Shown: positions 11,408 to 64,000, counted from the stretch's first letter. The stretch: DNA of 64,000 bases from Polyangia bacterium (GCA_046351615.1 JAXLYF010000011.1:10882-74881); one strand, 5' to 3'. The notes: generated from the letters alone by a model not told the origin. Program-made: numbers and translations.

Positions 11408-11417
11408 TGAGGTCGCC

Positions 11418-35200: not shown

Positions 35201-35771
35201 AGCGGACGCGAAGGGAGACGGAGCGAAGCTTCCTGAAGGAAAGGGAGCAGAGGGCGGGAAGCTTCCAGAAGGAAAGGGAGCAGAGGGCGGGAAGCTTCCA
35301 GAAGGAAAGGGAGCAGAGGGCGGGAAGCTTCCAGAAGGAAAGGGAGCAGAGGGCGGGAAACTTCCAGAAGGAAAGGGAGCAGAGGGCGGGAAGCTTCCAG
35401 AAGGAAAGGGAGCAGAGGGCGGGAAGCTTCCTGAAGGAAAGGGAGCAGAGGGCGGGAAGCTTCCTGAAGGAAAGGGAGCAGAGGGCGGGAAGCTGCCGGG
35501 ACGCAGTCAGCCTGCTCCGGCTGGCGGACAGCCAGGAGGTGCTCCAGCGGGTGATGCGAAGAGCGCGGCTCAGCCTGTTCCGTCAGCACCGGGAAATGCG
35601 CCTGCGGGTCGGGATAACGGCGGAATTCTGTCGAATGCGGGCAAGGCGGGTGGGGCGGCTCCAGCAGGAGGCACAGCGGCGGGCGGCAAGTCGTCGGCAG
35701 CCGGTGGCAGCGCCAAGGATGCGGCCAAGAAGACCGATCCGCTCAGCAAGCGTCCAGTGTGGAAACCGTAA
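32232..35771 (+). CDS. Giant (1179 aa) Ala/Lys/Val/Gln-rich alpha-helical repeat protein with highly repetitive Gly/Asp/Lys-rich C-terminus; unknown function
   Basis: First ~800 aa of 11-mer-like amphipathic helix sequence (KVAADAKTALSEAKTAVEKAKSDVKQAVEKVKKVV...); no signal peptide; C-terminus: 20-aa repeats ADAKGDGKADAKADAKADGAKDGAPG x3, 25-aa repeats DAKGDGLPGADAKGDGAKLPEGKGA x4, 11-aa repeats AEGGKLPEGKG x8. Confidence 0.75.
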   Translation: MDVNQQLASVRSDVDKVSKKTIDELNKVAAEGLQTVQNVAAGVEKVQGKVAADAKTALSEAKTAVEKAKSDVKQAVEKVKKVVDNAQQSVQKTAASGALGVIGKIQGAVTKITGAISSYKDTIVNAIDKVKSTVAGVVGPLIDKAKAALANIEARLRQLVEMAMAAFADIKAKVEKVIADVSTCFEVLSTAGPAAFEHAKQAIAAAKEAAQAASKRDFLLAKNRAEDAQKAAMSAVSEGQQCFDAIKRLIGGLAVAADGLSSSLKRHLEAAQSAAKEALAATREDVTGVVSQAKAGAAEIRGAVDAGVSEISTATQATAQKISQIVTVTASAAAKQAVDTARSIVSEIESTAGELRGIALETMSKVSETAHQLDVPGPSVDDLQKTVTDAMSQQDDARTKLQKIQQLQGKLAGLSWAELGPVGQEVQAEVNKIVGAGQRTLDSARSFAGSVKSTVTQLGSDVTTAITQRVDQWKGVGESAQKLFNETKDKVKKHVDEIKAEIDSIIKDAQKCVDELKKSVEDLVQSVKDGIEKAKNLDVSGAMDVVVKAKNLFETGKRHWDTMRGHFEKMKAHVLSVKDTVDGVVGQAGDVIEQAKGAFQSTIDAPKEVAGLVKSASEKLLGDANQTMATAQAEFKTAMAGASKLLDLASCTSSSTVQMGISAASSLAQSAVNAGKSAMAAGQGVMATAMSAVGVFDENARKQAAKACDSAMDAAKSALKAVEDAAKATDKVASGDAAGAQQAAAQVEQKAADAAGQAAKAQKEASAAEQNAKQAAADSTNPDAVEKKQQEKKGEAGAKKDGAQADAKKDGAKAGDEKKDAADSKGAGDEKKDAAGDGKADAKADGAKDGAPGADAKGDGKADAKADAKADGAKDGAPGADAKGDGKADAKADAKADGAKDGAPGADAKGDGLPGADAKGDGAKLPEGKGADAKGDGLPGADAKGDGAKLPEGKGADAKGDGLPGADAKGDGAKLPEGKGADAKGDGLPGADAKGDGAKLPEGKGAEGGKLPEGKGAEGGKLPEGKGAEGGKLPEGKGAEGGKLPEGKGAEGGKLPEGKGAEGGKLPEGKGAEGGKLPEGKGAEGGKLPGRSQPAPAGGQPGGAPAGDAKSAAQPVPSAPGNAPAGRDNGGILSNAGKAGGAAPAGGTAAGGKSSAAGGSAKDAAKKTDPLSKRPVWKP
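34738..35500 (+). repeat. In-frame coding tandem repeats: 60-bp units (x3), 75-bp units (x4), then 33-bp units gaaggaaagggagcagagggcgggaagcttcca (x8-9)
   Basis: Direct reading of DNA 34738-35500; produces long antisense shadow ORFs (34387..35589, 34432..35979). Confidence 0.85.
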
Positions 35772-40178: not shown

Positions 40179-41267
40179 GTGACAGGTTGTGATGGGGGAA
40201 CTGTGCCAAACCGTGTGCTTGGCTGGCTGATACTCTGTGTATCGGTACTGCTGCTGTGTTCAGCGCCAGCGCTTTGTCAGGAAGAGAGTGCCGCAACCTA
40301 TGAAGAGGAGGGCGCACGGCTGTTCCTGAGCAAGAGCTATGAGGGTGCGATCAAGCAGTTTACCCAAGCGTATCGACTCGATCCGAAGCCGCAGTATCTG
40401 TTTAACATCGGTCAGTCCTATCGGAAGCTGGGTCTGGCTGCGGAAGCGACAGAGTACTATCAGCGCTATCTGCACGATGAACAGAAGGTGGATCCAACCA
40501 TCTACGCAGATCTGACGACGTACATCGATCAGTACTACGCATCGCAAGAGCGTGGTGGGAGTCGTCCCAAGTCCAAGAGTGAAGCCGCAGAGCCTGCGCC
40601 GATGCTGGCCGCAGAGGAAATCGCCGATGCGGAAGAGCTGATTGCGCAGTTTGTTCGGGACTACCGAGCGGGCAATCAAGCGGTGGCCAATGAGATCATG
40701 GATCAGCTCAAGCAAGTGCTGCTGGTCCGTGGCGATCCGATCCTGATGTATCACATCGCGAACGGATACGATCAGGTCAAGAAGCGCAAGGAAGCCCTGG
40801 AATACTATCGTCGCTTCGTTGCGGTAGAGACTGCGGACCCTCGTCTTCGTCGTCGATCATTTGAACGGATTGCCCTTCTTACGCCTGCGCCGCCTGGTCA
40901 GAAGTATCTGTGGCCGAGCTTGGCGCTGGCGATTCCGGGACTTGCGGGTGTGCTGACCGGAGTGGCCCTTGCGGTTCAATCCGGGGACAACTTCCAGCAG
41001 TTCCTCAATGAAGCAGATGAACAGAAGAAGCGGGAACTCCGCGACAAAGGAGTCGGTCTGTCTATCGGATCGGTGACCTCCTATGCCATCGGTGGTGCCC
41101 TACTGGCCGGCGCAGGTGCGTTTGCGATTGTTGCCCTTAAAAAGGGAGTCCGTCAAAACGCGGAAGAGAAACGGACGGAACCCTCGCGCACAACGAAAAG
41201 CACCCTGACCGGATCGCTTCTGCCGCTGCCTGGCGGCGTGGGTCTGTCCTTGGGAGGGAATTTCTAA
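40179..41267 (+). CDS. TPR-repeat protein with signal peptide and two C-terminal TM helices, inserted between tssL and tssM
   Basis: TPR-like AIKQFTQAYRLDPKPQYLFNIGQSYRKLGLAAEATEYYQRYL; hydrophobic LWPSLALAIPGLAGVLTGVALAV and IGGALLAGAGAFAIVAL. Confidence 0.65.
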   Translation: MTGCDGGTVPNRVLGWLILCVSVLLLCSAPALCQEESAATYEEEGARLFLSKSYEGAIKQFTQAYRLDPKPQYLFNIGQSYRKLGLAAEATEYYQRYLHDEQKVDPTIYADLTTYIDQYYASQERGGSRPKSKSEAAEPAPMLAAEEIADAEELIAQFVRDYRAGNQAVANEIMDQLKQVLLVRGDPILMYHIANGYDQVKKRKEALEYYRRFVAVETADPRLRRRSFERIALLTPAPPGQKYLWPSLALAIPGLAGVLTGVALAVQSGDNFQQFLNEADEQKKRELRDKGVGLSIGSVTSYAIGGALLAGAGAFAIVALKKGVRQNAEEKRTEPSRTTKSTLTGSLLPLPGGVGLSLGGNF

Positions 41268-42715
41268 TGCTTAAGACTTCGCTTCTGTCTGCATTCCTAT
41301 CGGTGGGGCTGCTGGCCAGCACGGGCTGTACGCTGACCATGAACTATCAGCAGTGTAGCCAAGACAGCGACTGTACGGCGGCGGATGGAACGCCGGGCTA
41401 TTGCTCGTCGGATCAGCTCTGTCTGCCGAACACTCCGCTTGAGAGTCTGTGTACGATTACGATTCCTGATGCACCGTCTCCCAATGCGGTTCATCTGGGT
41501 GCGCTGCTGGATCTGCGTGACAAAAACGGACGACTGACCGAAGCGCATCGACTGCTCGCGCTGAAGCTGGGTGTCAAGCAGATTAACGATCTGGTGCAGC
41601 TGGATGGATCGCGTCCGCTGGCGATTGATGTCTGCAACGTGGGCGTGTCTGCGATCGACGCTGACAATGCGACCAAGATCCTGATCGAACAGCGCAATGT
41701 CGTGGCGATCATCGGACCGAACACGGCGTCCGCTGCGACCAACATGATCGGTCGAATCAAAGCGGCTGGCGTTCCCACGATCTCGCCTGCGATCATGGAC
41801 AGCGGAATTGCTGATGCAGCAAGTCAGGGTCTGTTTTATCGCTTGGCTCCCGTCGAAAGAGAGCAAGGCCTTCAGCTGGTTCGTGAGCTGGTGACGCTGT
41901 CTGGCGGAAAGAGCACCGCGCAGCTTGGACTTCTGTCTGTCACCGATTCCTATGGTGAAAACATTCGTCGCAAGTTCACTCCTGAGTGGCAGCGCCGTGA
42001 TCCGATCAACAACAAGACGGATCGATTCATTTCGTACAAAGACAACGATGCAAACCTGCTGAGCGTTACGACCAAGACGCTGCTTGATGCGAAGCCGAGC
42101 TTCGTGGTGCTGATTCCGGGATCGAACAGTCATCTGGTGGTGGGAGGTTTTGCGGATCTTCCGTTTGATCCGAAGAACCCCGGCTCCTTCGAGAGCACGA
42201 CCCAGGTGCTGGCTTCTTCCAGTGCGCGGACCGGAGACTTGATCAGGATGGCGCGGACCGGAGAAGACAAGATGAAGAATCATCTGTCGCGCATCACCGG
42301 AGTCGCTCCGCTGAGCTTTATTGATAGTCAAGAAGGCGCAGATTTTAAGTCGAGCTTCACGGCCACAAATCCGGGTCTGGCGCTCGAAGATGACTTCATG
42401 GTGGGCTACACCTACGACGCGCTGTTTGTGCTGGGTGCGGCCTCTGCTACGTTCAAGGGAGCGAGCCGACCGGATCAAATCCTGTCTGTTCTGCGACGCC
42501 TCAATGGCAACGCCAACTCGCTGTCTTTGACGCCGCGACTGTTCAACGAAACGGTTCAGAAGCTGGCACAGCAGCCGACCGATCCGTTCACTCTGCTTGG
42601 TGTTACAGGTGCGATTCGCTTCCAGACAGATGGCAGCCGAGATCCGGTTCTGCTCGAGCGCTGGAAGATCGATATCACCACCGGAGCGTACGTAAACACT
42701 CCGGCCAACATGTAA
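41267..42715 (+). CDS. Lipoprotein with periplasmic-binding-protein type I (LIVBP/ANF-receptor-like) fold, inside the T6SS locus
   Basis: Lipobox LLASTGCT; HLGALLDLRDKNGRL...GVKQINDL...VVAIIGPNTASAATNMIGRIKAAGVPTISP resembles Leu/Ile/Val-binding protein family N-lobe. Confidence 0.6.
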   Translation: MLKTSLLSAFLSVGLLASTGCTLTMNYQQCSQDSDCTAADGTPGYCSSDQLCLPNTPLESLCTITIPDAPSPNAVHLGALLDLRDKNGRLTEAHRLLALKLGVKQINDLVQLDGSRPLAIDVCNVGVSAIDADNATKILIEQRNVVAIIGPNTASAATNMIGRIKAAGVPTISPAIMDSGIADAASQGLFYRLAPVEREQGLQLVRELVTLSGGKSTAQLGLLSVTDSYGENIRRKFTPEWQRRDPINNKTDRFISYKDNDANLLSVTTKTLLDAKPSFVVLIPGSNSHLVVGGFADLPFDPKNPGSFESTTQVLASSSARTGDLIRMARTGEDKMKNHLSRITGVAPLSFIDSQEGADFKSSFTATNPGLALEDDFMVGYTYDALFVLGAASATFKGASRPDQILSVLRRLNGNANSLSLTPRLFNETVQKLAQQPTDPFTLLGVTGAIRFQTDGSRDPVLLERWKIDITTGAYVNTPANM

Positions 42716-52957: not shown

Positions 52958-54000
52958 TTGATGAGCTGTATAAAGATCCGCAGCGCTTCAACTTCTTTCA
53001 GCTGGTGCGGCTGCTGGAGATGCTTGCGCCAGCGTCCGAGTCACTGGGTGAAGGTGGCGAGCCAGCACTGGAAGCGGTGCGATTCCGTTCTTCCTTTTCG
53101 CTGGCATTTCCCGCAAGTGACATCGCTGCGATCGAGCGACCGAGCACCGAAGATGGCGTCCCCACCGTAACGGTTTCGATGCTTGGCTTGGGTGGTGCGC
53201 ACGGACCGCTTCCGCACAGCATGACAGACTGGGTGCTGGAACGGAATGCAGCGCGCGATCATGCGCTGCGTGACTTTCTGGACATCTTTGATCATCGCTT
53301 GGTGTCTCTGCTGTTTCGGGTTCGTCAGCGCTGTAAGCTGGGAACAGAGTGGACATCCCCCGACGAGCATCACTTCACAGAGTTCCTGTATGCACTGATG
53401 GGAATGCTGACGGAAGGACTGCGCGAGCGGCTGAAGGTTCCTGATCGTGCGCTGCTTCGCTATGCAGGACTACTGACCAAGCAGCCGCGTGATGCGGCGG
53501 GACTGGAGCGACTCCTGACCGATCACTTTCAGGTCAAAGTGATCTGCCATCAGCTTCGCGGAATGATGCGTCCGATCGAAGAAGAGCAGTGGACAAAGAT
53601 CGGACTGAGCGGTCAAAACCAGCTGCTTGGGAGCCAAGCGCTCGTCGGAACGATGGTCTGGGATCAGCAAGCAGGAATCGAGCTGGAAGTCGGACCGCTG
53701 CCGTGGAATCGCTATCTGGACTTTTTGCCGGGACAGCCGGGACTGCAAGCGCTGATTCAGCTTGCGCGATTTTACATCGGACCAGAGTTTGAGATCTTTG
53801 TCGCGCTGCTCATCCAAGCGGAAGAGATTCCGCGCGCACGGCTGAGTCAGCCGATCAGTGACAAGCCACCTGCGTCGGAGCAGCCGGTCTTGGGATTGAC
53901 CTCGTTTCTGTCGTACGGGACCAAGCTGCGCGGGACTCCCAGAGTCGCGCTGGGTGCGGTGGCCCGATACAGCGATGAACCACTGAGGGCGACGCCGTGA
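52912..54000 (+). CDS. tssG: Type VI secretion baseplate protein TssG
   Basis: PQRFNFFQLVRLLEML (TssG N-terminal signature); overlaps tssF end and vgrG start. Confidence 0.85.
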   Translation: MEEMATTGGLPQPSVIDELYKDPQRFNFFQLVRLLEMLAPASESLGEGGEPALEAVRFRSSFSLAFPASDIAAIERPSTEDGVPTVTVSMLGLGGAHGPLPHSMTDWVLERNAARDHALRDFLDIFDHRLVSLLFRVRQRCKLGTEWTSPDEHHFTEFLYALMGMLTEGLRERLKVPDRALLRYAGLLTKQPRDAAGLERLLTDHFQVKVICHQLRGMMRPIEEEQWTKIGLSGQNQLLGSQALVGTMVWDQQAGIELEVGPLPWNRYLDFLPGQPGLQALIQLARFYIGPEFEIFVALLIQAEEIPRARLSQPISDKPPASEQPVLGLTSFLSYGTKLRGTPRVALGAVARYSDEPLRATP

Positions 54001-56033
54001 GCGATCATGATTTTCTAAGTGCATCGACTCCTGCTGCGGATGCCTTGGTCTTGGAGTCTTTTCAGGGACAGGAAGAGCTGTCTCTGCCGTTTCTGTATAC
54101 GCTTCAGTTTCTGTCCAAAGATCGCAAGCTCGACTTCAAGAAGCTGATGGGAAAGGCGGTCACGATCACGATCGCACTTCCTGACAAGTCGAAGCGCTAC
54201 ATCTGCGGAATCGTGTCGCGCTTTATTGAATCGGGATACGATCCCAAGCACACGATCTACATCGCGGAGCTGCGTCCGTGGCTGTGGCTGCTGACGCTGC
54301 ATGCGGACAATCGGATCTTTCAAAACAAGAGCGTTCCCGAGATCATCGAAGAGGTCTTTTCGGACCTCGGTCTTAAGGACTTCAAAAAGAGCCTGAAGGG
54401 AACGTACGCCAAGCGTGAGTTCTGTGTTCAGTATCAGGAGTCGAGCTTTGACTTTGTCAGCCGCCTGATGGAAGACGAAGGAATCTTCTATTACTTCGAA
54501 CACACCGACGGAAAACACACGATGGTGCTGGCCGATGATAGCGATGGCTACGCCAAGTGTACGGGCTCTGATGAAGTGCGGATGGGACTGGATGACTCTC
54601 CGAACTGTCTGCGTGACTGCACGTTTGAGGAGTCGCTGGTTTCGACAGGATACGCACTGACCGATTACAACTTCGAGATTCCTTCGACCGATCTGTTCGT
54701 GAAGACAGGCGGTGGGAGTCCGGCGCTGGTCGTCTACGATCATCCCGGAAATTACGCCAAGAAGAACGATGGCGAGAAGCTGGCCAAGCTGCGGATTGAA
54801 TCCGTTGAACATGCCCAGAAAGTGCTGCGCGCAAGTGGAAATGCGCGTGGCTTTACGTCGGGTGGAAAGTTCAAGCTGACCAAGCACGATCGCAGCGATC
54901 TCAATCAGGAGTATGTGATTCGCAGCGTGTCTCACATTGCGGATCGCGGAAACTACGGAAACTCGATCGAAGCACTGCCGGCCTCTGTGGTGTTTCGTCC
55001 ACCACGTCGTACCCGTCGACAGATGGCACTGGGAAGCCAGACTGCGGTGGTGGTTGGCAAGTCCGGTGAAGAGATGTGGACCGACAAATACGGTCGCGTC
55101 AAAGTGCAGTTTCCGTGGGATCGCAAAGGAAAGAAGGACGAAAACAGCTCGTGCTGGGTACGCGTTGCGCAGCACTGGGCGGGCAAGGGCTACGGAACGT
55201 TCTTTCTGCCGCGCATCGGTCAGGAAGTGGTGATTACGTTCATTGATGGGAATCCCGATAGACCGCTGATTACCGGCGCTGTGTATAACGCGGAACAGAC
55301 GGTTCCCTACGCACTTCCAGACAACCAGACCAAGAGCACGACCAAGTCGCGAACCAGCAAGGGCGGTGGTGGCTTTAACGAGATTCGTCTGGAAGACAAG
55401 AAGGACTCCGAAGAGATCTACGTTCATGCGCAGAAGGACATGAACATCGAGGTCAAGCACGACCGCACCGCCAAGATCGAAAATGACTGCAAGACAGAGA
55501 TCAAAAATGATCGCAGCGCGAAGATCGATAACAACGACAAGACGGTGGTGAAAAAGAACCGTGAAGTCGAAGTGACCGAAGGCGATGAGCTGCTGCAAGT
55601 GAAGAAGGGGAATCGGACGATCTCTGTCGACAAAGGCGATGAAAAGCACACCGTCAAAGGCAAGCGAGAAGTCTCTGTAGAAAAAGACGAAAAGCACAGC
55701 AACAAAGCGAAGTTCAGCCACACGGTCGATAAGGACTACATCTTGACCATCAAAGGAAACCTCACGATTGAGGTGGATGGCGACATCAAGATCAAGTCGA
55801 AGAAGGGCATCAAAGCAGAGGCCTCTGCTGCGGTGGATCTCAAGTCAGGAGCGGATATGAAGCTCAAGGCGGGAGCCAACATGAAGCAGGAAGCGGCTGT
55901 GAACATGGATGTCAAAGCGGGTGTGGGAATGAAGCTGGAAGGCGTCAACATCGACGTGAAAGCGTCAGCGATGGCGAAGCTGGAAGGCGGTGCAATGGCT
56001 GCGATCAAGGGTGCACTACTAAAGCTGAACTAA
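53997..56033 (+). CDS. vgrG: VgrG (TssI) spike protein, core form (678 aa) without C-terminal effector extension
   Basis: LESFQGQEELSLPFLYTLQFLS, RYICGIVSRF, LRPWLWLLTLHADNRIFQNKSVPEII, gp5-like C-terminal beta-helix repeats (EVKHDRTAKIENDCKTEIKNDRSAKIDNND...). Confidence 0.9.
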   Translation: MSDHDFLSASTPAADALVLESFQGQEELSLPFLYTLQFLSKDRKLDFKKLMGKAVTITIALPDKSKRYICGIVSRFIESGYDPKHTIYIAELRPWLWLLTLHADNRIFQNKSVPEIIEEVFSDLGLKDFKKSLKGTYAKREFCVQYQESSFDFVSRLMEDEGIFYYFEHTDGKHTMVLADDSDGYAKCTGSDEVRMGLDDSPNCLRDCTFEESLVSTGYALTDYNFEIPSTDLFVKTGGGSPALVVYDHPGNYAKKNDGEKLAKLRIESVEHAQKVLRASGNARGFTSGGKFKLTKHDRSDLNQEYVIRSVSHIADRGNYGNSIEALPASVVFRPPRRTRRQMALGSQTAVVVGKSGEEMWTDKYGRVKVQFPWDRKGKKDENSSCWVRVAQHWAGKGYGTFFLPRIGQEVVITFIDGNPDRPLITGAVYNAEQTVPYALPDNQTKSTTKSRTSKGGGGFNEIRLEDKKDSEEIYVHAQKDMNIEVKHDRTAKIENDCKTEIKNDRSAKIDNNDKTVVKKNREVEVTEGDELLQVKKGNRTISVDKGDEKHTVKGKREVSVEKDEKHSNKAKFSHTVDKDYILTIKGNLTIEVDGDIKIKSKKGIKAEASAAVDLKSGADMKLKAGANMKQEAAVNMDVKAGVGMKLEGVNIDVKASAMAKLEGGAMAAIKGALLKLN

Positions 56034-56034
56034 C

Positions 56035-57279
56035 ATGAGCGAAGAGTCACAGCATACACAGGACACAGCGTCCCATCCGAGCACTGGCGCAGCGGAGAGC
56101 GAGCATGTAGAGCACGATGCCGATGGCAACGTCAGCATGCGTGGACCTCTCCGTGATGGAAAGATGGACGGGGAGTTTTCCTTTTTCCAGCACGGAAAGC
56201 TGTTTCAAAAATCGCACTATAAAGACGATCAACTCGACGGAGAATCGATCGAGTACTTCCCAAGTGGAAAGGTCTGTCAGCGCGTTCATTTCAAGGCCGG
56301 AAAGATCACCGGACTCTTGCGGCGCTTTGATGAACAGGGTCGTCCTGAGCTGCTGGCTGCGTACGTTCAAGGCGAGCTACATGGCGACATGGTGACCTAT
56401 GAAAACGGTCAGATGCAGAGCCAGCAGCACCATGTCAAAGGCAAGAAGCACGGAGTCGGAATCATTTATTCTCCCGACGGAAGTCCACTGCTGTCTGCGC
56501 AGTTTCAGAACGACAAACGACATGGCGAAGCGGTCTACTTTGGACCGCGTGGCGTGGTGGTTCGTCGTGAGCCGTATGTGGAAGGACTGATTCACGGAAC
56601 CGTTCAGGACTTCATGCCAGATGGTCGGCTGCGCGAAAGCAGTCAGTATGTTGCGGGCAAGCTGCATGGTGAGTCGCTGGTGTTTCATCCAAACGGAAAG
56701 CTGCAGCGACGGACTCGCTATGAGCAGGGGGCTCCCGTCGGTACGCCGGAGCAGTTTGATGAAAAGGGGCGTCCGCTTCAGACTGCGCAGGGACCGACGA
56801 CTCCTTCGGTGGAAGCACAAGCGGCGGATGCGGCCAAGCAGTCTGCGATTCGCGGTCTGATGGATGTGGCGCGCAAGAAGGTGGTCGCTGCGGTGGTTCC
56901 TGCTGTGACTGGAGCGTTCAGCGGTGCTGCGATGCCAGCGGCTCCCGAGCTTCCCAGTGCACCGGAGCTTCCGCAAGCACCGGAGGTTCCGCAGGTTCCA
57001 GAGTCTCCGGTAGAGAAGCCTGAGCTTGGTGAAGCTGCGCAAAAGCTGGCGGAAAAAGTCAAAGAACAAGCAGCAGAGAAGGCAGCGGAGCAGGCCGCAG
57101 AAAAAGCCGCAGAAAAATCCGATGCCAAGGCGCTGGCCGCGAAGGTGGATGCGTCCGCAGCAAAGGCTGCAAAGAAAGCGCCACCACCGCCACCGCCGCC
57201 ACGCAAGGGCCTGATCTTGGAGCCTCCGAACATCGGTACGCTGCCTAGAACAGAGCCACCGACACCAAGGGGGAAGTGA
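56035..57279 (+). CDS. MORN-variant repeat protein (YwqK-like repeats) with low-complexity C-terminus (PEL/PEV repeats, AEKAAEQAAEKAAEK, poly-Pro)
   Basis: Repeated G..DG....Y..NGKL motifs (FFQHGKLFQKSHYKDDQLDGESIEYFPSGKV..., VTYENGQMQSQQHHVKGKKHGVGIIYSPDGS..., LVFHPNGKLQRRTRYEQG); tail APELPSAPELPQAPEVPQVPESP...PPPPPPPRKG. Confidence 0.7.
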   Translation: MSEESQHTQDTASHPSTGAAESEHVEHDADGNVSMRGPLRDGKMDGEFSFFQHGKLFQKSHYKDDQLDGESIEYFPSGKVCQRVHFKAGKITGLLRRFDEQGRPELLAAYVQGELHGDMVTYENGQMQSQQHHVKGKKHGVGIIYSPDGSPLLSAQFQNDKRHGEAVYFGPRGVVVRREPYVEGLIHGTVQDFMPDGRLRESSQYVAGKLHGESLVFHPNGKLQRRTRYEQGAPVGTPEQFDEKGRPLQTAQGPTTPSVEAQAADAAKQSAIRGLMDVARKKVVAAVVPAVTGAFSGAAMPAAPELPSAPELPQAPEVPQVPESPVEKPELGEAAQKLAEKVKEQAAEKAAEQAAEKAAEKSDAKALAAKVDASAAKAAKKAPPPPPPPRKGLILEPPNIGTLPRTEPPTPRGK

Positions 57280-57665
57280 TGCCAAACGCAGTATGTATGG
57301 GAGCAATGCTCAAGTGTTCGTTTGGGGTGGCTCCGGGATCGCTGATGGTGCTTCCCACCAACCTTGTGATGTCGAGTGGGCCGGTGGCAAACATCATGGA
57401 TCACAAGCCAATGGTGAACGTCATGCCCTTTGGAATGTGTCAGTCGATGGCCAATCCGATGGTGGCAGCAGCGACGGCAGCGGCCATGGGAGTCCTGACT
57501 CCGATGCCATGCATTCCCAACACGCCGGCACCGTGGATTGTCGGGGCGCCGACCGTGCTGCTGGGGAACATGCCGATCCTGAACAACTCCGCGAAGTTGA
57601 TGTGTATGTGGGCGGGCGTGATCGAGATTCTGCCTCCTGGTGTTCCGACGATCATGACTCCTTAA
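57276..57665 (+). CDS. DUF4280-family PAAR-like protein (putative VgrG tip/sharpening or cargo-adaptor protein)
   Basis: 129 aa, Cys/Met/Pro-rich; CMGAMLKCSFGVAPGSLMVLP...NVMPFGMCQSMANPMVAAATAAAMGVLTPMPCIP...LMCMWAGVIEI matches the DUF4280 PAAR-like pattern; 4-bp overlap with upstream gene. Confidence 0.7.
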   Translation: MMPNAVCMGAMLKCSFGVAPGSLMVLPTNLVMSSGPVANIMDHKPMVNVMPFGMCQSMANPMVAAATAAAMGVLTPMPCIPNTPAPWIVGAPTVLLGNMPILNNSAKLMCMWAGVIEILPPGVPTIMTP

Positions 57666-57674
57666 GGAGCGAAG

Positions 57675-58547
57675 ATGGCTACGCGAGTTCGCAAGACAGC
57701 AGTAGTTGCACCGGCAGAGCCTGTACCAGAGACGACTCCTGTCCAGACCACGCGGCGACGGGCTACGACCAGTCGAACGGCGGCAACGCGACGGACAGCA
57801 AGCTCTTCTCGGAGTCAGCGGATTGCGGTGGGCGCAGAGCCTGTGCTTCCCGATGCAGAGCTGTCTGCGGACTCCGCAAAAGGGGTGGCTGCACCTGCGG
57901 AAGTCGCCGTCTCTGTTCCAGACACAGTCGCGGCTTCCGTTCCAGAGCCAGTGGTTGCAGAGTCGCAGAGCCCGGCTCCCGAACCGCCCAAGGCTGCTGC
58001 GACAGATGGACTTGCACTGACAGAGGGCGCTGGGCTTTCGCTTGCGATCACTGCGCGGGTGGAATCGATTCAGAAGCTGCTTTCGGAAGGACAAGAGCGC
58101 CTGTCGCAAGAGATCAGCAAGTCGCAGACCCAGACTGTACGCAACGTCTCTGGACTTGCGCATGATGTCGATCGCTTGATGACGCAGCTTCAGGGGCTTT
58201 CGTCGCGGATTACGCAGACAGAGAGCACCCTTGCGCGAATTGAAGCGACGCTGGTTCCGCTGTCGCGAGCGATCTCTGCCAGCTTGCTTCCCAGCAAACC
58301 TGTCGAAAAAGTGGTGAGTCCTGAGCTGTTAGAGAGTCGACTTGCAACGGCGATGGCTCCGATCTTGGCAGAGCTTATCGAGCTACGTGCGCTAAGGGCG
58401 CGTGAGAGCAGCCTGGCGCAAGTGGAGCAGCAGATTCTGCTGACGGAACTGAAGCGATTGCGAAACGTTGCACTTCCGGTCGCGGAGCGGACTACGGATC
58501 CTTTACTCTCTGTAGGAAAGACTTCGCGACGTTTGTCTTCAAAATAG
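57675..58547 (+). CDS. Hypothetical protein: disordered Arg/Thr/Pro/Ala/Val-rich N-terminus plus C-terminal coiled-coil domain; tightly linked (10-bp gap) to PAAR-like gene
   Basis: N-terminus TTRRRATTSRTAATRRTASSSRSQR; C-terminus heptad-like LSEGQERLSQEISKSQTQTVRNVSGLAHDVDRLMTQLQGLSSRITQTESTLARIEATL. Confidence 0.55.
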   Translation: MATRVRKTAVVAPAEPVPETTPVQTTRRRATTSRTAATRRTASSSRSQRIAVGAEPVLPDAELSADSAKGVAAPAEVAVSVPDTVAASVPEPVVAESQSPAPEPPKAAATDGLALTEGAGLSLAITARVESIQKLLSEGQERLSQEISKSQTQTVRNVSGLAHDVDRLMTQLQGLSSRITQTESTLARIEATLVPLSRAISASLLPSKPVEKVVSPELLESRLATAMAPILAELIELRALRARESSLAQVEQQILLTELKRLRNVALPVAERTTDPLLSVGKTSRRLSSK

Positions 58548-58625
58548 TGACTGGGTACGGTGTGGGATGGGGTGGGGGACTTGTAGTAGGTAGTGATTCC
58601 TAGACTGGCTTAGTGAGGGGGGAAC

Positions 58626-61600
58626 TTGATGCGACATACACTCACGGTGAGGGGACTGTGCCTTGCGGTCTGGTCATGCCTCGCGCTTCTGTGGGCATCC
58701 TGTAGTGTGCCAGACGGCGTGATGTTGTCGATCCGTGCTCCCGAGGGAGTGCGACTTCAGAGCTACATCATCAAGATTCAGGATCGCAGCACCCGCAAAG
58801 TGGTGTTTCTGTCCGGTATCCAAACGCTGAGCGAAAAGCGACTGCTGGCGAGTGATCCGCTGAAGGTTGCGCTGCCGTTTTCGCAGCACGGACGATTCTT
58901 GATCCAGGTGCTGGCTGCCAATGTTCCCAACGTAGAGTCTCTGCCGCAGAAAGGGAATCCCGAGCCGCAGTACTTCTTTGCGCGGATGCTCGACATCGCG
59001 TCGTATCAGGAATTTGAAGCAAAGCTGCTGCCAATTCCTTCGGAATACGATGTGGACGGAGACCACTTTCCCGACGCTGTGACCTGGACTGCGCAGAACG
59101 CTGAAGCGGCTGCGATGTATCAAGATCAACCGGAAGTGCTGGACTGTGTGGACTCCGATCCAGCCCCTGGTGATCTGGAACCGGTGCGACTGCGGAGCTT
59201 TGACATTCATCCGCTGGCGACGCCGTCTTGTAACGTCAAGCTGCGTCCTTCCCATCCGCCGAGCACCCTTCCTCCGCTGGAGCTATTCGACGTAACGTGT
59301 GCGAAGGAGCCGCGCGCGTGCGAAGACAAAGACGGTGACGGAGATCCCGAAGGCAGCGACTGCGATGACACCGACAAGAATCGCTATCACGGAAATCCTC
59401 GACCGCGAAACTGTTGTGAGTGTACCGATGTCACTTCCTGCGCGACGAATCACAAGAAGCGCGCGGATCTCTCTTTGTGTCAGCCGAAGCGCTGCGATAC
59501 GACGTTTGACTTTGACTGCACAGGACTGAACGTAGACTGCTTCACCGACGAAGATTGTGATGGCTATTCGCCGAACAATCCCGATGTGAAGCTGCGTGAC
59601 TGTGATGACACGGACTCGCGCGTGCATCCCAATGCGCAGAAGCTGTGTGATCCTGCTGATGGTGTGATCAAAGACTGGGCGTGCGATGGTCGTCCGCAAG
59701 CGGGCTGTGTTCCGTGCGATCTGGACGGTGATGGATTTCAGCGCTCAGAGGTTCTAGCCGGACAGACTTGTCCGACGACAAACTACAAGATGTCGGGACG
59801 TCCTCTGGACTGCGATGACAACGATCGCGGTGTGTTTCCGGGCTCTGCGACAGCGGCAGGAACTGCTACCAAGTACGGTGCGCTGGATCCTGCATCGAAG
59901 GGCTTCAATGTCCTTTCTGCCATGCGCGGACTGTGTCGCAACACGGACTCCACCGGAGCGATTCAGAACACAAGCTGCGAAGATCCCACGCTGGCGCGAG
60001 CTGGCTGTCCTTCGCTGTCTTGTGATGCGGACGGAGACGGATTCCCAAAGAACGTGGTTGGCTGCACGGTGGTCGGAAAGCCGTTTGACTGCAACGACAG
60101 CGATCCGACTGCATTTCCTGGTGCTCCGATTGCGTGTGATGGCAAAGATCATGACTGTGACAACGTCGCGGATGTCTGTTCCTTTGACCGTGACAAAGAT
60201 GGGTACGATGCAGCCAGTGACTGTGATGATGCCAACGCAGATGTCCATCCGTTCGCGGTGGAGATGTGCAATGGCAGAGACGATGACTGCGACGGTCTGA
60301 TCGACGAGCTGAACCCGGACTCTGCTGGAGCGCGGATGGTTCAGACCGGAACCGATGGATCGAAAAAGACCACGTCTTGCGCGGACTCTACCGTTGGTCT
60401 GTGTGGACAGAAGGACGGCAGCGGATTCTTCAGCGGTCGCTGTGTCTGTACGTCTACGGTTCCTTCTTCCACCGTTGACACCAAGGCGTTTCAGGGGTGT
60501 CCGTCTCAAGACAACAATGCACTGTTTACGGCGCGCTGCTTTGGTGCAAATCAACCCAAGCCGCAGACCTGCGATGCGCTCAATCCGGTGGATGATGACT
60601 GCAACGGCAGCCTCGATGATCCAACAGGAAACAACCTGAAGGAAAAGGGACAAGCGTGCGGAATCACGGTGGCCGGTACGCGCTGCAAGGCCGGTACAGT
60701 AACGGGCTGTGTGCGCACCAAAGACAATCCGTTTTATGCGCTGAGCGTTCCGGGCTTCGCACAAAAAGATCGCTACTTGGTTTGCAAGGATCAGACGGAT
60801 CCGATCGCAGAGCTTTGCAACGGTCTCGACGATGACTGTAGTGGCGCGCTGCCAGCCAACGAGAAGGATGCAGATGGCGACAAGTACATGTCCTGCTCGG
60901 GCTGCAAGGACACGGACAATCCCGCTGCGTTTAATACGAACCTTCTGTATTGCAACGACTGCGATGACAGCAACCGCAATGTCTGGCCCGCGATTCCCGC
61001 ACCCAGCATGCAGGCGCGTGATGGCGCTCCGGAGCTATGTGACAGCCTGGACAACAAGTGCGTGAGCGGAAACGTCAGCATGACGCCCGGCAACGACGGA
61101 TTTGAGCAGTGCGGAAACGGAGCAGATACCGGAAAGGGAACCTGCTGCCCGATGCTGCGGATGTGTATCGATCCGCAGACAGACTTCGCTCACTGCGGAA
61201 GCTGCACCGGCGCTTGTAGCTCGAGCACGGCGGATCGCTGCGGTGGTGGACAGTGCATGTGCAATAACGAAGTGGCCTGCGATCCGGCCAGTCAGGTCAA
61301 GTCTCTGTGCAAGGCCGGAACGGGCTGCGTGCAGTGTCTGGCTGGTGCAGACTGCTTGCGCATCCTGGGTTCTTCGACCACCACGAAGGCATGCAGTGCG
61401 ACCCAGAATCGCTGCGTAGAGTGTACCGACAACGGGTTCTGCTCGGCCTTCCCTGGACGTCCTGCTTGCGATACCGGAACCGGAAAGTGCGCAGTCTGCT
61501 TGAGCAACATGGACTGCAAGACTCCGACGGCACCGGGCTGCAAAGTCGATCCAGCCGACAGCAGCAAGAACATGTGTGTGGAGTGTACGCAAAACAGTCA

Positions 61601-62642
61601 CTGCACCACGCCTGGCAAGACCACTTGTGACACCACGATCAACAAGTGCGTCCCGTGCTTGATCGCTGCGGACTGCAAGAACATGTCTCCTGCGCAGTGC
61701 AAGACGGACCCGGACTCTACGCTCAACATGTGTGTGGAGTGTCTGACCAGCAATGACTGTAAGACGCTGACTTCGCGTCCGATCTGCGATGCAACCAAGA
61801 ACAAGTGTGTGCCGTGTCTGGGGGATACGGACTGTCCGAACACGGCTCCCAAGTGCTTCAAGGATGTGGGCGGAGACACGTCGAAGAACCTGTGTGTCCC
61901 GTGCTTGAGCAGCACAGACTGCGCGGGTGTCGCGGGCAAGCCAGTCTGCGATCTGGTGTCGCATCAGTGCATTGCGTGCCAGGGAAACCCAGACTGCTCT
62001 GGCGTTGCAGGAAAGCCGGCGTGCTACATAAACGCTGCGGACACGACCAAGAATCAGTGTGTTCCGTGCGTAGGAACTACGGACTGTCCGATGGCGACTC
62101 CGACGTGCAAGCAGAATGCGGCGGATCCCAGCAAGAACATGTGTCTCATCTGTCTGGCGGATGCCAACTGTCCAGCGACGACGCCTGCTTGCTACAAAGA
62201 TCCAGGTATGGATGACACCAAGAACTACTGCGTGGAGTGCACGTCCAACCTGCAGTGCAAGGCTGCGAGTCCGGTGTGTTACGTCGATGCAGATCCCAAG
62301 AAGAATGCCTGCGCAGCATGTCTGGCCAATGCGGACTGCACAAACGCGAGCACTCCCAAGTGTTACGTAGATGCAACAGACAAGCACAAGAATGTCTGCA
62401 CCGCGTGTCTGATGAACGCGGACTGCAACGGAACCAACAAGTTCTGTCAGACGGTCAATGCGATGCCGGTGAAGAACCTCTGTGTGCCGTGCGCAGCGAA
62501 TGCGGACTGTAAGGGAGCGACTCCTAAGTGCTACATCGACATGGCAGATCCTACCAAGACGCTGTGTGTAGAGTGCTTGATGAATGCGGACTGTCCAATG
62601 AGCAAGCCAACGTGTAATATGACAACGCACGCTTGTATGTAA
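58626..62642 (+). CDS. Giant (1338 aa) Cys-rich secreted lipoprotein: N-terminal domain, MopE-like 'putative metal-binding' Cys/Asp motifs, then ~16 tandem ~35-aa four-Cys repeats (Myxococcus-type Cys-rich repeat)
   Basis: Signal LCLAVWSCLALLWASCSV; MopE-like DCDDTDKNRYHGNPR, DCDDTDSRVHPNAQKLCD, CNDSDPTAFPGAPIACDGKDHDCD, DCDDANADVHPFAVEMCNGRDDDCDGLIDE; C-terminal repeats C(V)xC(L)x3DCx5-7CxxDx5-8KNxC e.g. CVPCLGDTDCPNTAPKCFKDVGGDTSKNL. Confidence 0.8.
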   Translation: MMRHTLTVRGLCLAVWSCLALLWASCSVPDGVMLSIRAPEGVRLQSYIIKIQDRSTRKVVFLSGIQTLSEKRLLASDPLKVALPFSQHGRFLIQVLAANVPNVESLPQKGNPEPQYFFARMLDIASYQEFEAKLLPIPSEYDVDGDHFPDAVTWTAQNAEAAAMYQDQPEVLDCVDSDPAPGDLEPVRLRSFDIHPLATPSCNVKLRPSHPPSTLPPLELFDVTCAKEPRACEDKDGDGDPEGSDCDDTDKNRYHGNPRPRNCCECTDVTSCATNHKKRADLSLCQPKRCDTTFDFDCTGLNVDCFTDEDCDGYSPNNPDVKLRDCDDTDSRVHPNAQKLCDPADGVIKDWACDGRPQAGCVPCDLDGDGFQRSEVLAGQTCPTTNYKMSGRPLDCDDNDRGVFPGSATAAGTATKYGALDPASKGFNVLSAMRGLCRNTDSTGAIQNTSCEDPTLARAGCPSLSCDADGDGFPKNVVGCTVVGKPFDCNDSDPTAFPGAPIACDGKDHDCDNVADVCSFDRDKDGYDAASDCDDANADVHPFAVEMCNGRDDDCDGLIDELNPDSAGARMVQTGTDGSKKTTSCADSTVGLCGQKDGSGFFSGRCVCTSTVPSSTVDTKAFQGCPSQDNNALFTARCFGANQPKPQTCDALNPVDDDCNGSLDDPTGNNLKEKGQACGITVAGTRCKAGTVTGCVRTKDNPFYALSVPGFAQKDRYLVCKDQTDPIAELCNGLDDDCSGALPANEKDADGDKYMSCSGCKDTDNPAAFNTNLLYCNDCDDSNRNVWPAIPAPSMQARDGAPELCDSLDNKCVSGNVSMTPGNDGFEQCGNGADTGKGTCCPMLRMCIDPQTDFAHCGSCTGACSSSTADRCGGGQCMCNNEVACDPASQVKSLCKAGTGCVQCLAGADCLRILGSSTTTKACSATQNRCVECTDNGFCSAFPGRPACDTGTGKCAVCLSNMDCKTPTAPGCKVDPADSSKNMCVECTQNSHCTTPGKTTCDTTINKCVPCLIAADCKNMSPAQCKTDPDSTLNMCVECLTSNDCKTLTSRPICDATKNKCVPCLGDTDCPNTAPKCFKDVGGDTSKNLCVPCLSSTDCAGVAGKPVCDLVSHQCIACQGNPDCSGVAGKPACYINAADTTKNQCVPCVGTTDCPMATPTCKQNAADPSKNMCLICLADANCPATTPACYKDPGMDDTKNYCVECTSNLQCKAASPVCYVDADPKKNACAACLANADCTNASTPKCYVDATDKHKNVCTACLMNADCNGTNKFCQTVNAMPVKNLCVPCAANADCKGATPKCYIDMADPTKTLCVECLMNADCPMSKPTCNMTTHACM

Positions 62643-62658
62643 CGGTAAGGAGAGCCTT

Positions 62659-63477
62659 GTGATGGACGGACGCAGTGAGGATACCGAAGCGAAGATTGCT
62701 GAGCTACAGGCTCTTCTTCCCGGTAGTGATGCGGCGGCTCTGTATGAAGCGAGCCGTCGCGCGGCGCTGGCGGTTGAGTTTCGTGGTGTCGATGAAGTCT
62801 TGGGACTGCTTAGGAATCGATCGTCTCAGATTGAGCAGCTGGGAGAGCTGACCCTACAAGCGCTGACACGCGCCGCTCAGCTTGGTCACTTGCAAGCCGG
62901 AGTGGATCTCGCCAATCGCATCTATTTTTCCCGGCAGACAGAGCGCGCAAGCGAAGCGTTTGCACTGGCAGACAGAGCGCAGAGCATTCCGCGCGCGCTG
63001 TATCTGCTCGGGCTGTTTTACTTTGCAGGCTTTGGCTGCGAAAAAGATGCATCGAAAAGTATTCATTATCATCAGCTCGCGGCAGAAGCCGGGGAAGCCG
63101 ATGCGATGTTCGAGCTGTATGTCTTTTACACCAAGGGAGTCGGAACCTCCGTCGACAAAGCGGTTGCCTTTTCGTGGTGTGAACGTGCGGCGGAAGCAGG
63201 CAATCATCGCGCCATGGCGAACCTGGGTGGCTTCTACGCAACCGGCGATGGTGTGACGCAAGATCCCGAAAAGGCCGTGGTGTTTTACGATCGCGCCGCC
63301 CAAGCGGGAAATGGTCTTGCGGCAGCTACGCTCGGCATGATGTACGCAATCGGTGATGGAGCGCCCCACAGTGACGAGTCCGCACGTCGCTACTTTCGCA
63401 TGGCAGAGTCTCTGCGCTACGACTGGCGTGCGCTCGCTGATCAGTGTGGACTCCGTACCGATCCGTACGAAGCGTAG
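62659..63477 (+). CDS. Sel1-repeat (TPR-like) protein
   Basis: Sel1 units: ALYLLGLFYFAGFGCEKDASKSIHYHQLAAEAGEADAMFELYVFYTKGVGTSVDKAVAFSWCERAAEAGNHRAMANLGGFYATGDGVTQDPEKAVVFYDRAAQAGNGLAAATLGMMYAIGDG. Confidence 0.8.
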   Translation: MMDGRSEDTEAKIAELQALLPGSDAAALYEASRRAALAVEFRGVDEVLGLLRNRSSQIEQLGELTLQALTRAAQLGHLQAGVDLANRIYFSRQTERASEAFALADRAQSIPRALYLLGLFYFAGFGCEKDASKSIHYHQLAAEAGEADAMFELYVFYTKGVGTSVDKAVAFSWCERAAEAGNHRAMANLGGFYATGDGVTQDPEKAVVFYDRAAQAGNGLAAATLGMMYAIGDGAPHSDESARRYFRMAESLRYDWRALADQCGLRTDPYEA

Positions 63478-63495
63478 TCCGCTCTTTCTTTCTCC

Positions 63496-63561
63496 TCTCC
63501 AGTGATTGGGAATCGATTGGGAATCGATTGGGAGTCGATTGGGAATCGATTGGGAATCGAT
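63496..63561. repeat. Six tandem copies of 11-bp unit attgggaatcg (two with g-to-a variant ggagtcg) in convergent intergenic region
   Basis: gattgggaatcgattgggaatcgattgggagtcgattgggaatcgattgggaatcgattgggagtcg; shares the GGGAATCG core with array at 17023-17110. Confidence 0.85.
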
Positions 63562-63575
63562 TGGGAGTCGTGTGC

Positions 63576-63962
63576 CTACAGCCCGATTCGCTGGTTGTGG
63601 CGCGCGGCTTGCCACGCAGTTCCAAAGCGTCCCGGCCACTTGGTCTGCGGATTCTGTTTGAGCGAATCGGTGACAAGCTCGATCCAGCGCTGGAGCAGTA
63701 CGCGGCTCTCTGCAAACGCCTTCTGCGACGACGGAGGACTGAGCAGCCAGCGCTGTTCATACTGATTCCGTTCCGATTCAAACAAGGGAAGGAGTCGCTC
63801 TGGATGCTGAAGGACCAGGCGATGCAGGCGCTCATGCTGCCAGAACAGCGAATGGGAATCGGCGCGTCCAAATGCGGGCTGTCCCAGCTCTTCCGGCGGC
63901 AGCGGCTCATGCACCGACGCGGGCTTAAACAGCGACAGACACGGCGCCGAGGTCGCGGTCAC
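63576..63962 (-). CDS. Hypothetical protein (128 aa) at the window edge
   Basis: ORF with ATG at 63962; no motif recognised; may extend or be mis-started given proximity to window end. Confidence 0.35.
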   Translation of the reverse strand: MTATSAPCLSLFKPASVHEPLPPEELGQPAFGRADSHSLFWQHERLHRLVLQHPERLLPLFESERNQYEQRWLLSPPSSQKAFAESRVLLQRWIELVTDSLKQNPQTKWPGRFGTAWQAARHNQRIGL

Positions 63963-64000
63963 ATGGTGGCGATCTCCCTGCGGAGACAGCCGCGAAACCC

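Follow-up and report, generated by a model that had tools for sequence, protein, structure and literature searches.

What do the genes directly behind vgrG encode in the Polyangia bacterium contig presented here (GCA_046351615.1 JAXLYF010000011.1:10882-74881), and is the MORN-repeat protein found there an immunity protein? An earlier note on this 64,000-nucleotide (nt) stretch of DNA, referred to below as the window, described a translationally coupled trio of genes for a MORN/YwqK-like repeat protein with a low-complexity tail, a DUF4280 PAAR-like protein, and a 290-amino-acid (aa) protein (here ORF3, for open reading frame), and associated repeats of the first type with immunity proteins. 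The trio is real and is part of the spike-tip module of a type VI secretion system (T6SS). Its first two members, a TseF-like MORN protein and a PA2375-like DUF4280 protein, constitute an already known, poorly understood tip module of H3-type systems; what is new is the tail of the MORN protein, which bears a motif, and ORF3, an orphan whose basic peptide is invariant. Judged by sequence comparison, the MORN protein belongs to the family of Pseudomonas aeruginosa TseF (PA2374) and not to the YwqK-type immunity proteins. Members of this family are conserved gene partners of the DUF4280 cap, and the two genes overlap in most loci, across several phyla.

The MORN protein and the DUF4280 cap

The genes of the block and the Sel1-repeat gene behind it are as follows:

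53997-56033, + strand: vgrG (TssI), 678 aa; spike core only, VgrG3-like
56035-57279, + strand: MORN-repeat protein of the TseF family, 414 aa; its C-terminal extension is specific to the lineage
57279-57665, + strand: DUF4280 PAAR-like spike-tip protein, 128 aa, without extension domain; alternative GTG start at 57276 (129 aa)
57675-58547, + strand: ORF3, 290 aa; lineage-restricted, no family match
58626-62642, + strand: 1338-aa lipoprotein, rich in Cys and carrying metal-binding motifs of the MopE type; fifth gene of the block, conserved
62659-63477, + strand: Sel1-repeat protein (PF08238, 93.7 bits)

The three plus-strand ORFs of the trio are present as first described and are closely spaced. 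A single nucleotide separates vgrG from the MORN gene (TAA-c-ATG). The TGA codon of the latter overlaps the sequence GTGATG, by 4 nt if the DUF4280 gene starts at GTG and by 1 nt if it starts at ATG; the ATG at 57279 is the likelier start than the GTG at 57276. ORF3 follows after a 9-nt gap, in which the DUF4280 stop codon is succeeded by TAAGGAGcgaagATG, and a Shine-Dalgarno-like AAGGAG spans that stop codon ahead of ORF3. Translational coupling, stated as fact in the earlier note, is a reasonable deduction from this spacing (the 1-nt gap, the overlap, and the 9-nt gap). No promoter-like sites were found in positions 53500 to 64000, and terminator-like sites in the same interval occur at chance level. 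Another 290-aa ORF on the + strand (57293-58165) overlaps the DUF4280 gene and ORF3 in a different frame; its product is not conserved among the relatives, and it was set aside as a chance ORF in GC-rich DNA.

The MORN protein matches the Pfam family MORN_2 with 68.6 bits (cutoff, 29.6), and its repeats form one continuous structure:

56098-56757, + strand: MORN beta-hairpin array, aa 22-241, 19 strands; predicted local distance difference test score (pLDDT) above 90 in the AlphaFold2 (AF2) model

In a Foldseek comparison with PDB, the top matches of the array model were MORN1 proteins (E = 3e-9) and junctophilins. A homology search with aa 1-290 returned mostly fragments and unlinked MORN_2 proteins, and orthologs were drawn from syntenic loci. 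A hidden Markov model (HMM) of 46 syntenic non-myxobacterial orthologs, from which this lineage and TseF had been left out, scored the best domain of the window protein at 149.5 bits and that of TseF at 120.3 bits, versus 78 bits or less for unlinked MORN_2 proteins. In a pairwise comparison, the window protein and TseF share 28% identity (E = 5e-17). Similarly to tseF, the MORN gene is located directly downstream of an H3-type vgrG and adjoins a DUF4280 gene.

TseF has been described as a MORN-motif protein that is secreted by the H3-T6SS and binds vesicles containing the Pseudomonas quinolone signal (PQS) for iron uptake (PMC5379069). Passage through the P. aeruginosa H3-T6SS has been reported for just two proteins, TseF being one of them, and a 2025 review describes its iron/PQS role as contentious (PMC12133291). 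In P. aeruginosa, vgrG3 (PA2373), tseF (PA2374), and PA2375 (DUF4280) lie side by side where the cluster ends, as they do here; the annotated H3 locus lists vgrG3, a 178-aa “YwqK family antitoxin,” which is TseF, and DUF4280. The two loci differ in several respects. TseF, with 178 aa and ∼3 annotated MORN motifs, has no tail, whereas the 414-aa window protein combines the 19-strand array with a 160-aa extension; clpV3 adjoins vgrG3, whereas the window has no tssH; and ORF3 and the Cys-rich lipoprotein have no counterparts in P. aeruginosa. To our knowledge, PQS is specific to Pseudomonas, so that its binding cannot be the general function of the TseF family, and we know of no PQS production in most of the organisms that carry a MORN-DUF4280 pair.

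The assignment of the 128-aa protein as a PAAR-like cap holds. It matches PF14107 with 116.1 bits (cutoff, 26.3), the match covering positions 1-107 of the 109 in the profile, and shares 60% identity with PA2375 from the P. aeruginosa H3-T6SS; within the lineage, identity is 89-97%. Among 22 diverse orthologs, Cys13, Cys54, Cys78, and Cys109 are invariant, and Cys6 is retained in at least 90%; four conserved metal-coordinating cysteines are a known feature of DUF4280/PAAR-like proteins (PMC5349215). The gene shares one operon-like block with vgrG and is located 1.2 kb downstream of it, as it likewise is linked to vgrG in more than 50 related loci.

The surrounding T6SS cluster is complete and occupies 37.8-56 kb of the window on the + strand, in the order tssK, tssL, a TPR gene, a gene for a periplasmic-binding-protein-like product, tssM, tssA, tssB, tssC, hcp, tssE, tssF, tssG, and vgrG. 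Given that TssC is 65% identical to P. aeruginosa TssC3, VgrG is 41% identical to VgrG3 over its full length, and DUF4280 is 60% identical to PA2375, the cluster can be classified, at the sequence level, as an H3-type T6SS of an uncultured Myxococcales/Polyangia bacterium; this group is named 4a or i4a in the literature (PMC8356804, PMC7970981). The nearest relatives are Myxococcales/Polyangia metagenome-assembled genomes (MAGs), and in one uncultured Myxococcales MAG (L006), a contig carries the stretch from the DUF4280 to the Sel1 gene in identical form. VgrG (TIGR03361, 614 bits) contains just the Phage_GPD, Phage_base_V, and Gp5_trimer_C domains with beta-helix repeats at its end, so that its description as a bare core of 678 aa is accurate.

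A scan with the DUF4280 alignment, run against one genome per species, detected 80 loci. The order vgrG, MORN_2 protein (160-290 aa), DUF4280 was found in ∼50 of the 80, in members of the Oxalobacteraceae, Comamonadaceae, Gemmatimonadota, Nitrospirales, Chlorobiota, and others. The MORN gene is T6SS-linked in nearly all relatives. The MORN stop overlaps the DUF4280 start codon in 46 of the 52 nonduplicate loci, and the two are within 9 nt of each other in 3 more. In beta-proteobacteria, the triad is located inside the core cluster, between tssH and tssK-tssL-tssM. In Paenibacillus harenae, whose locus contains no T6SS gene, a 601-aa MORN protein is encoded 2 nt after DUF4280. Gene pairs that keep overlapping stop and start codons across phyla usually encode proteins that are made in fixed proportion and bind each other. 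Since the overlap is kept across phyla here, the MORN protein can be read as a partner of DUF4280, and we infer a tip-associated MORN-DUF4280 complex. The literature searched contained no paper that treats DUF4280 and MORN together.

The same triad appears in T6SS-b of Paraburkholderia phymatum, a member of group i4a, as vgrG (Bphy_5985), a YwqK-family gene (Bphy_5986), and a PAAR-like gene (Bphy_5987), listed there without comment or function (PMC8356804). The gene order is identical to that in the window, the DUF4280 proteins share 67.5% identity, and the layout of locus L029 is the same, whereas the P. phymatum MORN protein is short and tail-less. Behind its triad come genes for a hypothetical protein, a solute-binding protein, and dicarboxylate symporters, where the window has ORF3 and the lipoprotein. 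A solute-binding protein and two Na+:dicarboxylate symporters likewise follow DUF4280 in other beta-proteobacteria (L029, 10661-14282).

A working analogy is provided by the DUF4150/PIPY PAAR-like cap, which needs a dedicated DUF2169 chaperone and whose gene strictly co-occurs with vgrG and the accessory gene (PMC11883445). The analogy would be one of roles: DUF2169 has a novel fold, unrelated in family and structure to the MORN beta-hairpin array, and some DUF4280 loci lack MORN, unlike the strict co-occurrence in the DUF2169-DUF4150/PIPY case. That a DUF4280 cap can recruit a partner is known from Francisella IglG, a DUF4280 protein with an N-terminal helix that binds IglF (PMC5014421, PMC5349215). 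The window protein shares with IglG the PAAR-like cap and the conserved cysteines and is a weak match to its NCBIfam model (63.9 bits; cutoff, 200). In contrast to IglG, it has no N-terminal extension, its putative partner is the MORN protein encoded upstream, and the T6SS is of subtype i, not ii as in Francisella.

Several facts weigh against such a partnership. Five vgrG-linked DUF4280 loci (L027, L039, L059, L082, and L083) have no MORN gene, and neither does Caballeronia, so MORN is not obligatory for the cap. In P. aeruginosa itself, PA2375 is convergent to tseF and the two are not coupled, in contrast to the head-to-tail overlap here and in the 46 loci mentioned above. On balance, membership of the MORN protein in the TseF family and its role as a DUF4280 partner appear quite probable. 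The coupling of the two genes across phyla is the most useful outcome of this analysis, as it offers a testable alternative to the disputed function of TseF: TseF-like proteins may be tip partners of a noncanonical PAAR-like cap, paralleling the DUF2169-PIPY pair.

DUF4280 genes with products 57-73% identical to that of the window also occur in loci without a detectable T6SS gene, including those of archaeal MAGs and Firmicutes: L028, L062, and L063 (Methanoperedens); L043, L049, and L050 (Competibacter); and L047 (Paenibacillus; 10001-12195).

The tail of the MORN protein and ORF3

Past the array, the MORN protein contains the following segments:

56809-56910, + strand: helix after the MORN array, aa 259-292, ...KQSAIRGLMDVARKKVV...; low model confidence
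56911-57177, + strand: variable low-complexity spacer, with an acidic P-E-(L/V)-P repeat at aa 293-333 and an A/E/K-rich helix at aa 334-381
57178-57279, + strand: conserved C-terminal short linear motif, PPPPPPP-R-K-G-L-I-L-E-P-P-N-I-G-T-L-P ... R-G-K, then stop

In short orthologs, the protein ends directly past the array with an amphipathic helix, which is conserved, and RGx (for example, ...ILRRLETMVRGQ). Judging from position and pattern, the helix at aa 259-292 probably corresponds to this terminal element (hhxRhxxhhRGx), beyond which the window protein runs for ∼120 more residues. The last 12 codons of the short MORN genes (L013-L081) all encode such an amphipathic helix with R-G-x (for example, LETMVRGQ, LKRLVRGD, and EKLFRGS), and this C-terminal element coincides with the overlap at the DUF4280 start codon. 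TseF (L088, 6404-6940, − strand) ends in a Trp-rich helix (MARWRWWWIRLAEP). A WH2-like reading of the window sequence ...AIRGLMDVARKKVV... was considered and dropped: on inspection, its spacing is off relative to the WH2 consensus LLxxIxxGxxLKKV, and it aligns better with the C-terminal helix of the short orthologs.

The tail had been described as bizarre and of low complexity, with a PEL/PEV repeat, an AEKAA-type segment, and a run of eight prolines. The repeat and the A/E/K-rich segment are there, but the proline run has seven residues, followed by Arg, and the tail is not mere noise, as it carries an invariant short motif (PPPPPPPRKGLILEPPNIGTLP…RGK in this lineage). In the spacer, the DNA contains tandem repeats with periods of 18, 12, and 9, and more distant relatives have an Ala/Gly-rich sequence in its place. 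The end of the tail follows a common pattern: a run of prolines, R, 2 or 3 hydrophobic residues, LEPPx(I/L)G(T/S)LP, and R-G/A-K/R at the terminus. It is invariant in all 8 aligned lineages (P, R, LEPP, G, LP, and R), even where the remaining tail cannot be aligned. Given that the middle varies freely and the end is fixed, the tail can be regarded as a short linear motif displayed on a flexible spacer.

ORF3 can be divided into three parts:

57675-57824, + strand: N-terminal Arg/Thr/Ser-rich peptide, aa 1-50, net charge +9; MATRVRKT...TTRRRATTSRTAATRRTASSSRSQRI
57825-58013, + strand: acidic linker rich in Pro/Ala/Val, aa 51-113, variable in sequence and length; net charge -8
58014-58547, + strand: helical domain and basic C-terminal end; helices at aa 114-204 and 216-266

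Among the relatives, sequence identity is 70-96% in the N-terminal peptide and 52-80% in the helices, versus 16-40% in the linker. In the AF2 model, aa 1-113 are predicted to be disordered (pLDDT of the N-terminal peptide below 50), and the two long helices have pLDDT values of 85-97. The original outline of a disordered N terminus followed by a coiled coil thus agrees with the model as far as disorder and long helices go, but it misses that the N terminus is the most conserved part and not mere disorder: its pattern is kept even in the distant members P0037-P0041. The helical domain contains the conserved motif QTVRNVSGLAHDVDRLM, and all full-length family members share this same C-terminal domain.

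No Pfam, NCBIfam, PADLOC, or PHROG family matches ORF3 at threshold, and the PADLOC and PHROGs scans of all three proteins of the trio gave nothing meaningful. Weak Pfam matches (Baculo_PEP_C, Sec3_CC, Sec10_N, NPV_P10, and IcmG/DotF) fall well short of their cutoffs and are what coiled coils typically give, and they were discarded. The fold search with the ORF3 model against PDB had a best E value of 3.9, fold and PDB profile searches recovered generic coiled coils only, and sequence and fold searches identified no housekeeping homolog. No other protein of the window shares the N- or C-terminal region of ORF3. The family is small: 27 clusters were recovered from 5.8 billion proteins, and a profile search of 1.84 billion gave 18 cluster representatives. 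A weak relative, P0051 (288 aa; E = 5e-4), has an N-terminal region that appears HTH-like by eye and the conserved helix motif, as NFTGVAHHLDSLMERV, to be compared with RNVSGLAHDVDRLMTQ in ORF3; its sequence hints that the ORF3-type helical module may also occur outside the T6SS block.

The block of vgrG, long-tailed MORN, DUF4280, ORF3, and lipoprotein genes is found in every locus with enough flanking sequence, down to ∼31% ORF3 identity, and the flanks beyond Sel1 differ between relatives. The tail, ORF3, and the lipoprotein occur together in all ∼14 distinct contigs and in none of the ∼45 non-myxobacterial loci; ORF3 was never found away from DUF4280. The lipoprotein (PF11617, 74 bits; lipobox LWASC, read from the sequence) always follows ORF3 in myxobacterial relatives with enough flank and is shortened in L086, to 751 aa. 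It may bear on metal uptake, a theme that has been reported for systems of the H3 type. The Sel1-repeat gene usually comes next and is absent in L004/L010 and L012.

The basic N terminus of ORF3 can be set beside RIX (for arginine-rich type six), a domain at the N termini of Vibrio effectors and secreted adaptors that serves their delivery (PMC10435454). By description, both are conserved arginine-rich segments of ∼50-55 aa at the extreme N termini of T6SS-linked proteins that are not fused to PAAR, VgrG, or Hcp. However, RIX is predicted to be helical, whereas the ORF3 peptide is Thr/Ser-rich and predicted to be disordered, and RIX proteins have polymorphic C termini, in contrast to the single conserved C-terminal domain of ORF3. 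An electrostatic pairing of the basic peptide with the acidic PE repeat of the MORN tail (net charge of -6, with +3 in the adjoining A/E/K helix) was discarded as a conserved feature: in distant relatives, the basic peptide is retained, but the Ala/Gly-rich sequence takes the place of the repeat.

Proposed mechanism and competing explanations

These observations can be combined into the following model. The MORN protein would be made in step with the DUF4280 cap and would bind it, either as a chaperone or adaptor, comparable to DUF2169 for the DUF4150/PIPY cap, or as a passenger that leaves on the spike; the latter role would explain the secretion of TseF. In the lineage of the window, the MORN protein would have gained an extension of ∼160 residues, made up of a variable, flexible spacer and, at its end, an invariant proline-rich motif for docking, and this gain would coincide with the arrival of two new downstream genes, those for ORF3 and the Cys-rich lipoprotein. 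The tail motif would bring ORF3 to the loaded spike. ORF3 itself may be a nonenzymatic cargo or coadaptor, with the invariant arginine-rich peptide as a loading or delivery element that works like RIX and the helical hairpin as the part that carries the function. Recruitment of ORF3 by the tail is the simplest model, given that the tail, ORF3, and the lipoprotein co-appear and do so only in this clade.

Three points count against parts of this scheme. The co-occurrence of tail and ORF3 is restricted to one clade, and is therefore confounded, as shared ancestry may explain it. RIX has been reported in the Vibrionaceae and Moritellaceae only. ORF3 also lacks the usual hallmarks of an effector, namely a toxin domain, an adjacent immunity gene, and presence/absence polymorphism, which argues against a classical antibacterial effector. 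The earlier statement that the 290-aa protein has no known toxin domain is borne out by the family scans; its designation as a candidate cargo effector is possible but weakened, as the protein is invariably present and syntenic and has no immunity partner. Most likely, ORF3 is a lineage-specific, spike-associated cargo or accessory protein. The explanation as a whole, with the TseF-family MORN protein as DUF4280 tip partner and a tail that recruits ORF3, stands at about even chances, and its recruitment step, taken separately, is tentative. A still bolder version would make TseF-type MORN proteins universal stoichiometric partners of DUF4280, even in T6SS-less Firmicutes, and not effectors for metal uptake in single species; it would make the tail an arm that hooks ORF3 as a new class of cargo, and the ORF3 peptide a T6SS delivery signal not described before, with a role like that of RIX but no homology to it; that version is speculative and rather improbable. 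The myxobacterial version represents a natural experiment, in which a spacer-plus-motif tail appears with an orphan ORF, and it could reveal how cargo hooks onto DUF4280-type spikes.

Among the competing explanations, the one that survives best, still on the unlikely side, takes ORF3 for a nonsecreted structural or regulatory accessory of the Tag type, such as a regulator of assembly or firing, whose Ser/Thr/Arg-rich peptide would be a phosphorylation or docking site and which would replace functions of TagH/Fha, ClpV, and TssJ. Such a core-like role would fit the strict presence and synteny of ORF3 in every relative, its lack of a toxin domain or immunity gene, the evolution of its ordered parts at rates close to those of TssG and MORN, and the many R-x-x-S/T sites that can be read in its N-terminal peptide. 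No genes for ClpV/TssH, TssJ, TagH/FHA, or PpkA were found across positions 1-64000 of the window, and in Caballeronia, tagH directly follows vgrG. However, regulatory domains, FHA included, are absent from ORF3, the cluster has no linked kinase or phosphatase (the sole PP2C is 35 kb off), and the position after the cap and the co-appearance with the MORN tail better suit a spike-associated role.

It is quite unlikely that the extended MORN protein is an effector against eukaryotic cells, with an array that binds membrane phospholipids, a poly-proline/PxxPxR tail that engages SH3, profilin, or EVH1-type host proteins, and ORF3 as a helper. The folds nearest to that of the MORN protein are indeed MORN1 and junctophilin, eukaryotic proteins associated with membranes; a link of H3-T6SS effectors to host interactions has been described (PMC12133291); and TseF binds membrane vesicles (PMC5379069). 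The tail sequence PPPPPPPRK also fits the class II SH3-ligand pattern, but only at the level of consensus patterns. Moreover, the tail is wholly absent from the short orthologs, bacterial envelope and motility proteins commonly contain proline-rich spacers (a weak match to GltJ was seen here), and the family scans detected no WH2 or other host-mimic domain.

An immunity function of the MORN protein in a polymorphic toxin system, with the 290-aa protein as its cognate cargo toxin, is very unlikely. This reading draws on the MORN_2 repeats, on the location just after vgrG, a common site of effector and immunity pairs, and on the NCBI name “toxin-antitoxin system YwqK family antitoxin.” YwqK is the antitoxin (immunity protein) of the Bacillus subtilis LXG toxin YwqJ, and the MORN_2 repeat type that it shares with these MORN proteins is the source of the database name. 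Unlike YwqK, the MORN protein of the window has no adjacent cognate toxin: its neighbors are a VgrG without toxin domain, the 128-aa DUF4280 protein, and ORF3 without toxin match, and the Pfam, NCBIfam, and PADLOC scans identified no toxin family in any neighbor. Nor does the gene have the distribution of a strain-variable cassette; it is kept within core T6SS clusters, in a fixed, syntenic position across ∼50 species of several phyla. With neither an adjacent toxin gene nor a variable cassette, the YwqK-type reading fails in two defining features. In those ∼50 species, the MORN gene stands beside a bare, toxin-less DUF4280 of the 128-aa type, ORF3 is absent, and the next genes encode transporters or TssK. 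Among the relatives that do have ORF3, it is never variable or swapped, and the gene order would be atypical, with immunity upstream and a cap gene between it and the “toxin.” Finally, secretion has been reported for TseF, which belongs to the same family (PMC5379069). The name “YwqK family antitoxin” is thus misleading for proteins in this genomic context, and a cleaner annotation would be of use even if the genes were plain lineage-specific accessories.

The least likely explanation, that ORF3 and the Cys-rich lipoprotein form an independent, T6SS-unrelated downstream operon that is adjacent by chance in this clade, would agree with their absence in every non-myxobacterial relative of the cluster and with the extracytoplasmic nature of the lipoprotein and the 78-nt gap ahead of it, but not with the start of ORF3 only 9 nt past the DUF4280 stop codon with the Shine-Dalgarno-like sequence over it, the lack of a promoter-like site, the persistence of the adjacency in the ∼14 contigs despite differing flanks past Sel1, or the consistent linkage of ORF3 to DUF4280.

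Other features of the cluster and the window

In the window, tssG directly overlaps vgrG. In Oxalobacteraceae, Caballeronia, and the H3 locus of P. aeruginosa, tssH is located between these two genes (L015, 4530-7277; L087, 3384-5990; and L091, 15414-17963, for comparison). The TPR and Peripla_BP_6 genes between tssL and tssM (40179-42715, + strand) are non-T6SS genes embedded in the cluster, as are the solute-binding protein and symporter genes in the beta-proteobacterial clusters.

Upstream of the cluster, the window encodes two giant VIT-VWA proteins (6737-15503, + strand) and a PP2C phosphatase fused to a cyclic-nucleotide-binding domain (607-1944, + strand); no link to the trio was established for any of them. 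Just upstream of tssK, a 1179-aa protein (32232-35771, + strand) combines a long helical N-terminal part, with weak matches of the coiled-coil type, and C-terminal tandem peptide repeats, GADAKGDGLPGADAKGDGAKLPEGK and GAEGGKLPEGK.

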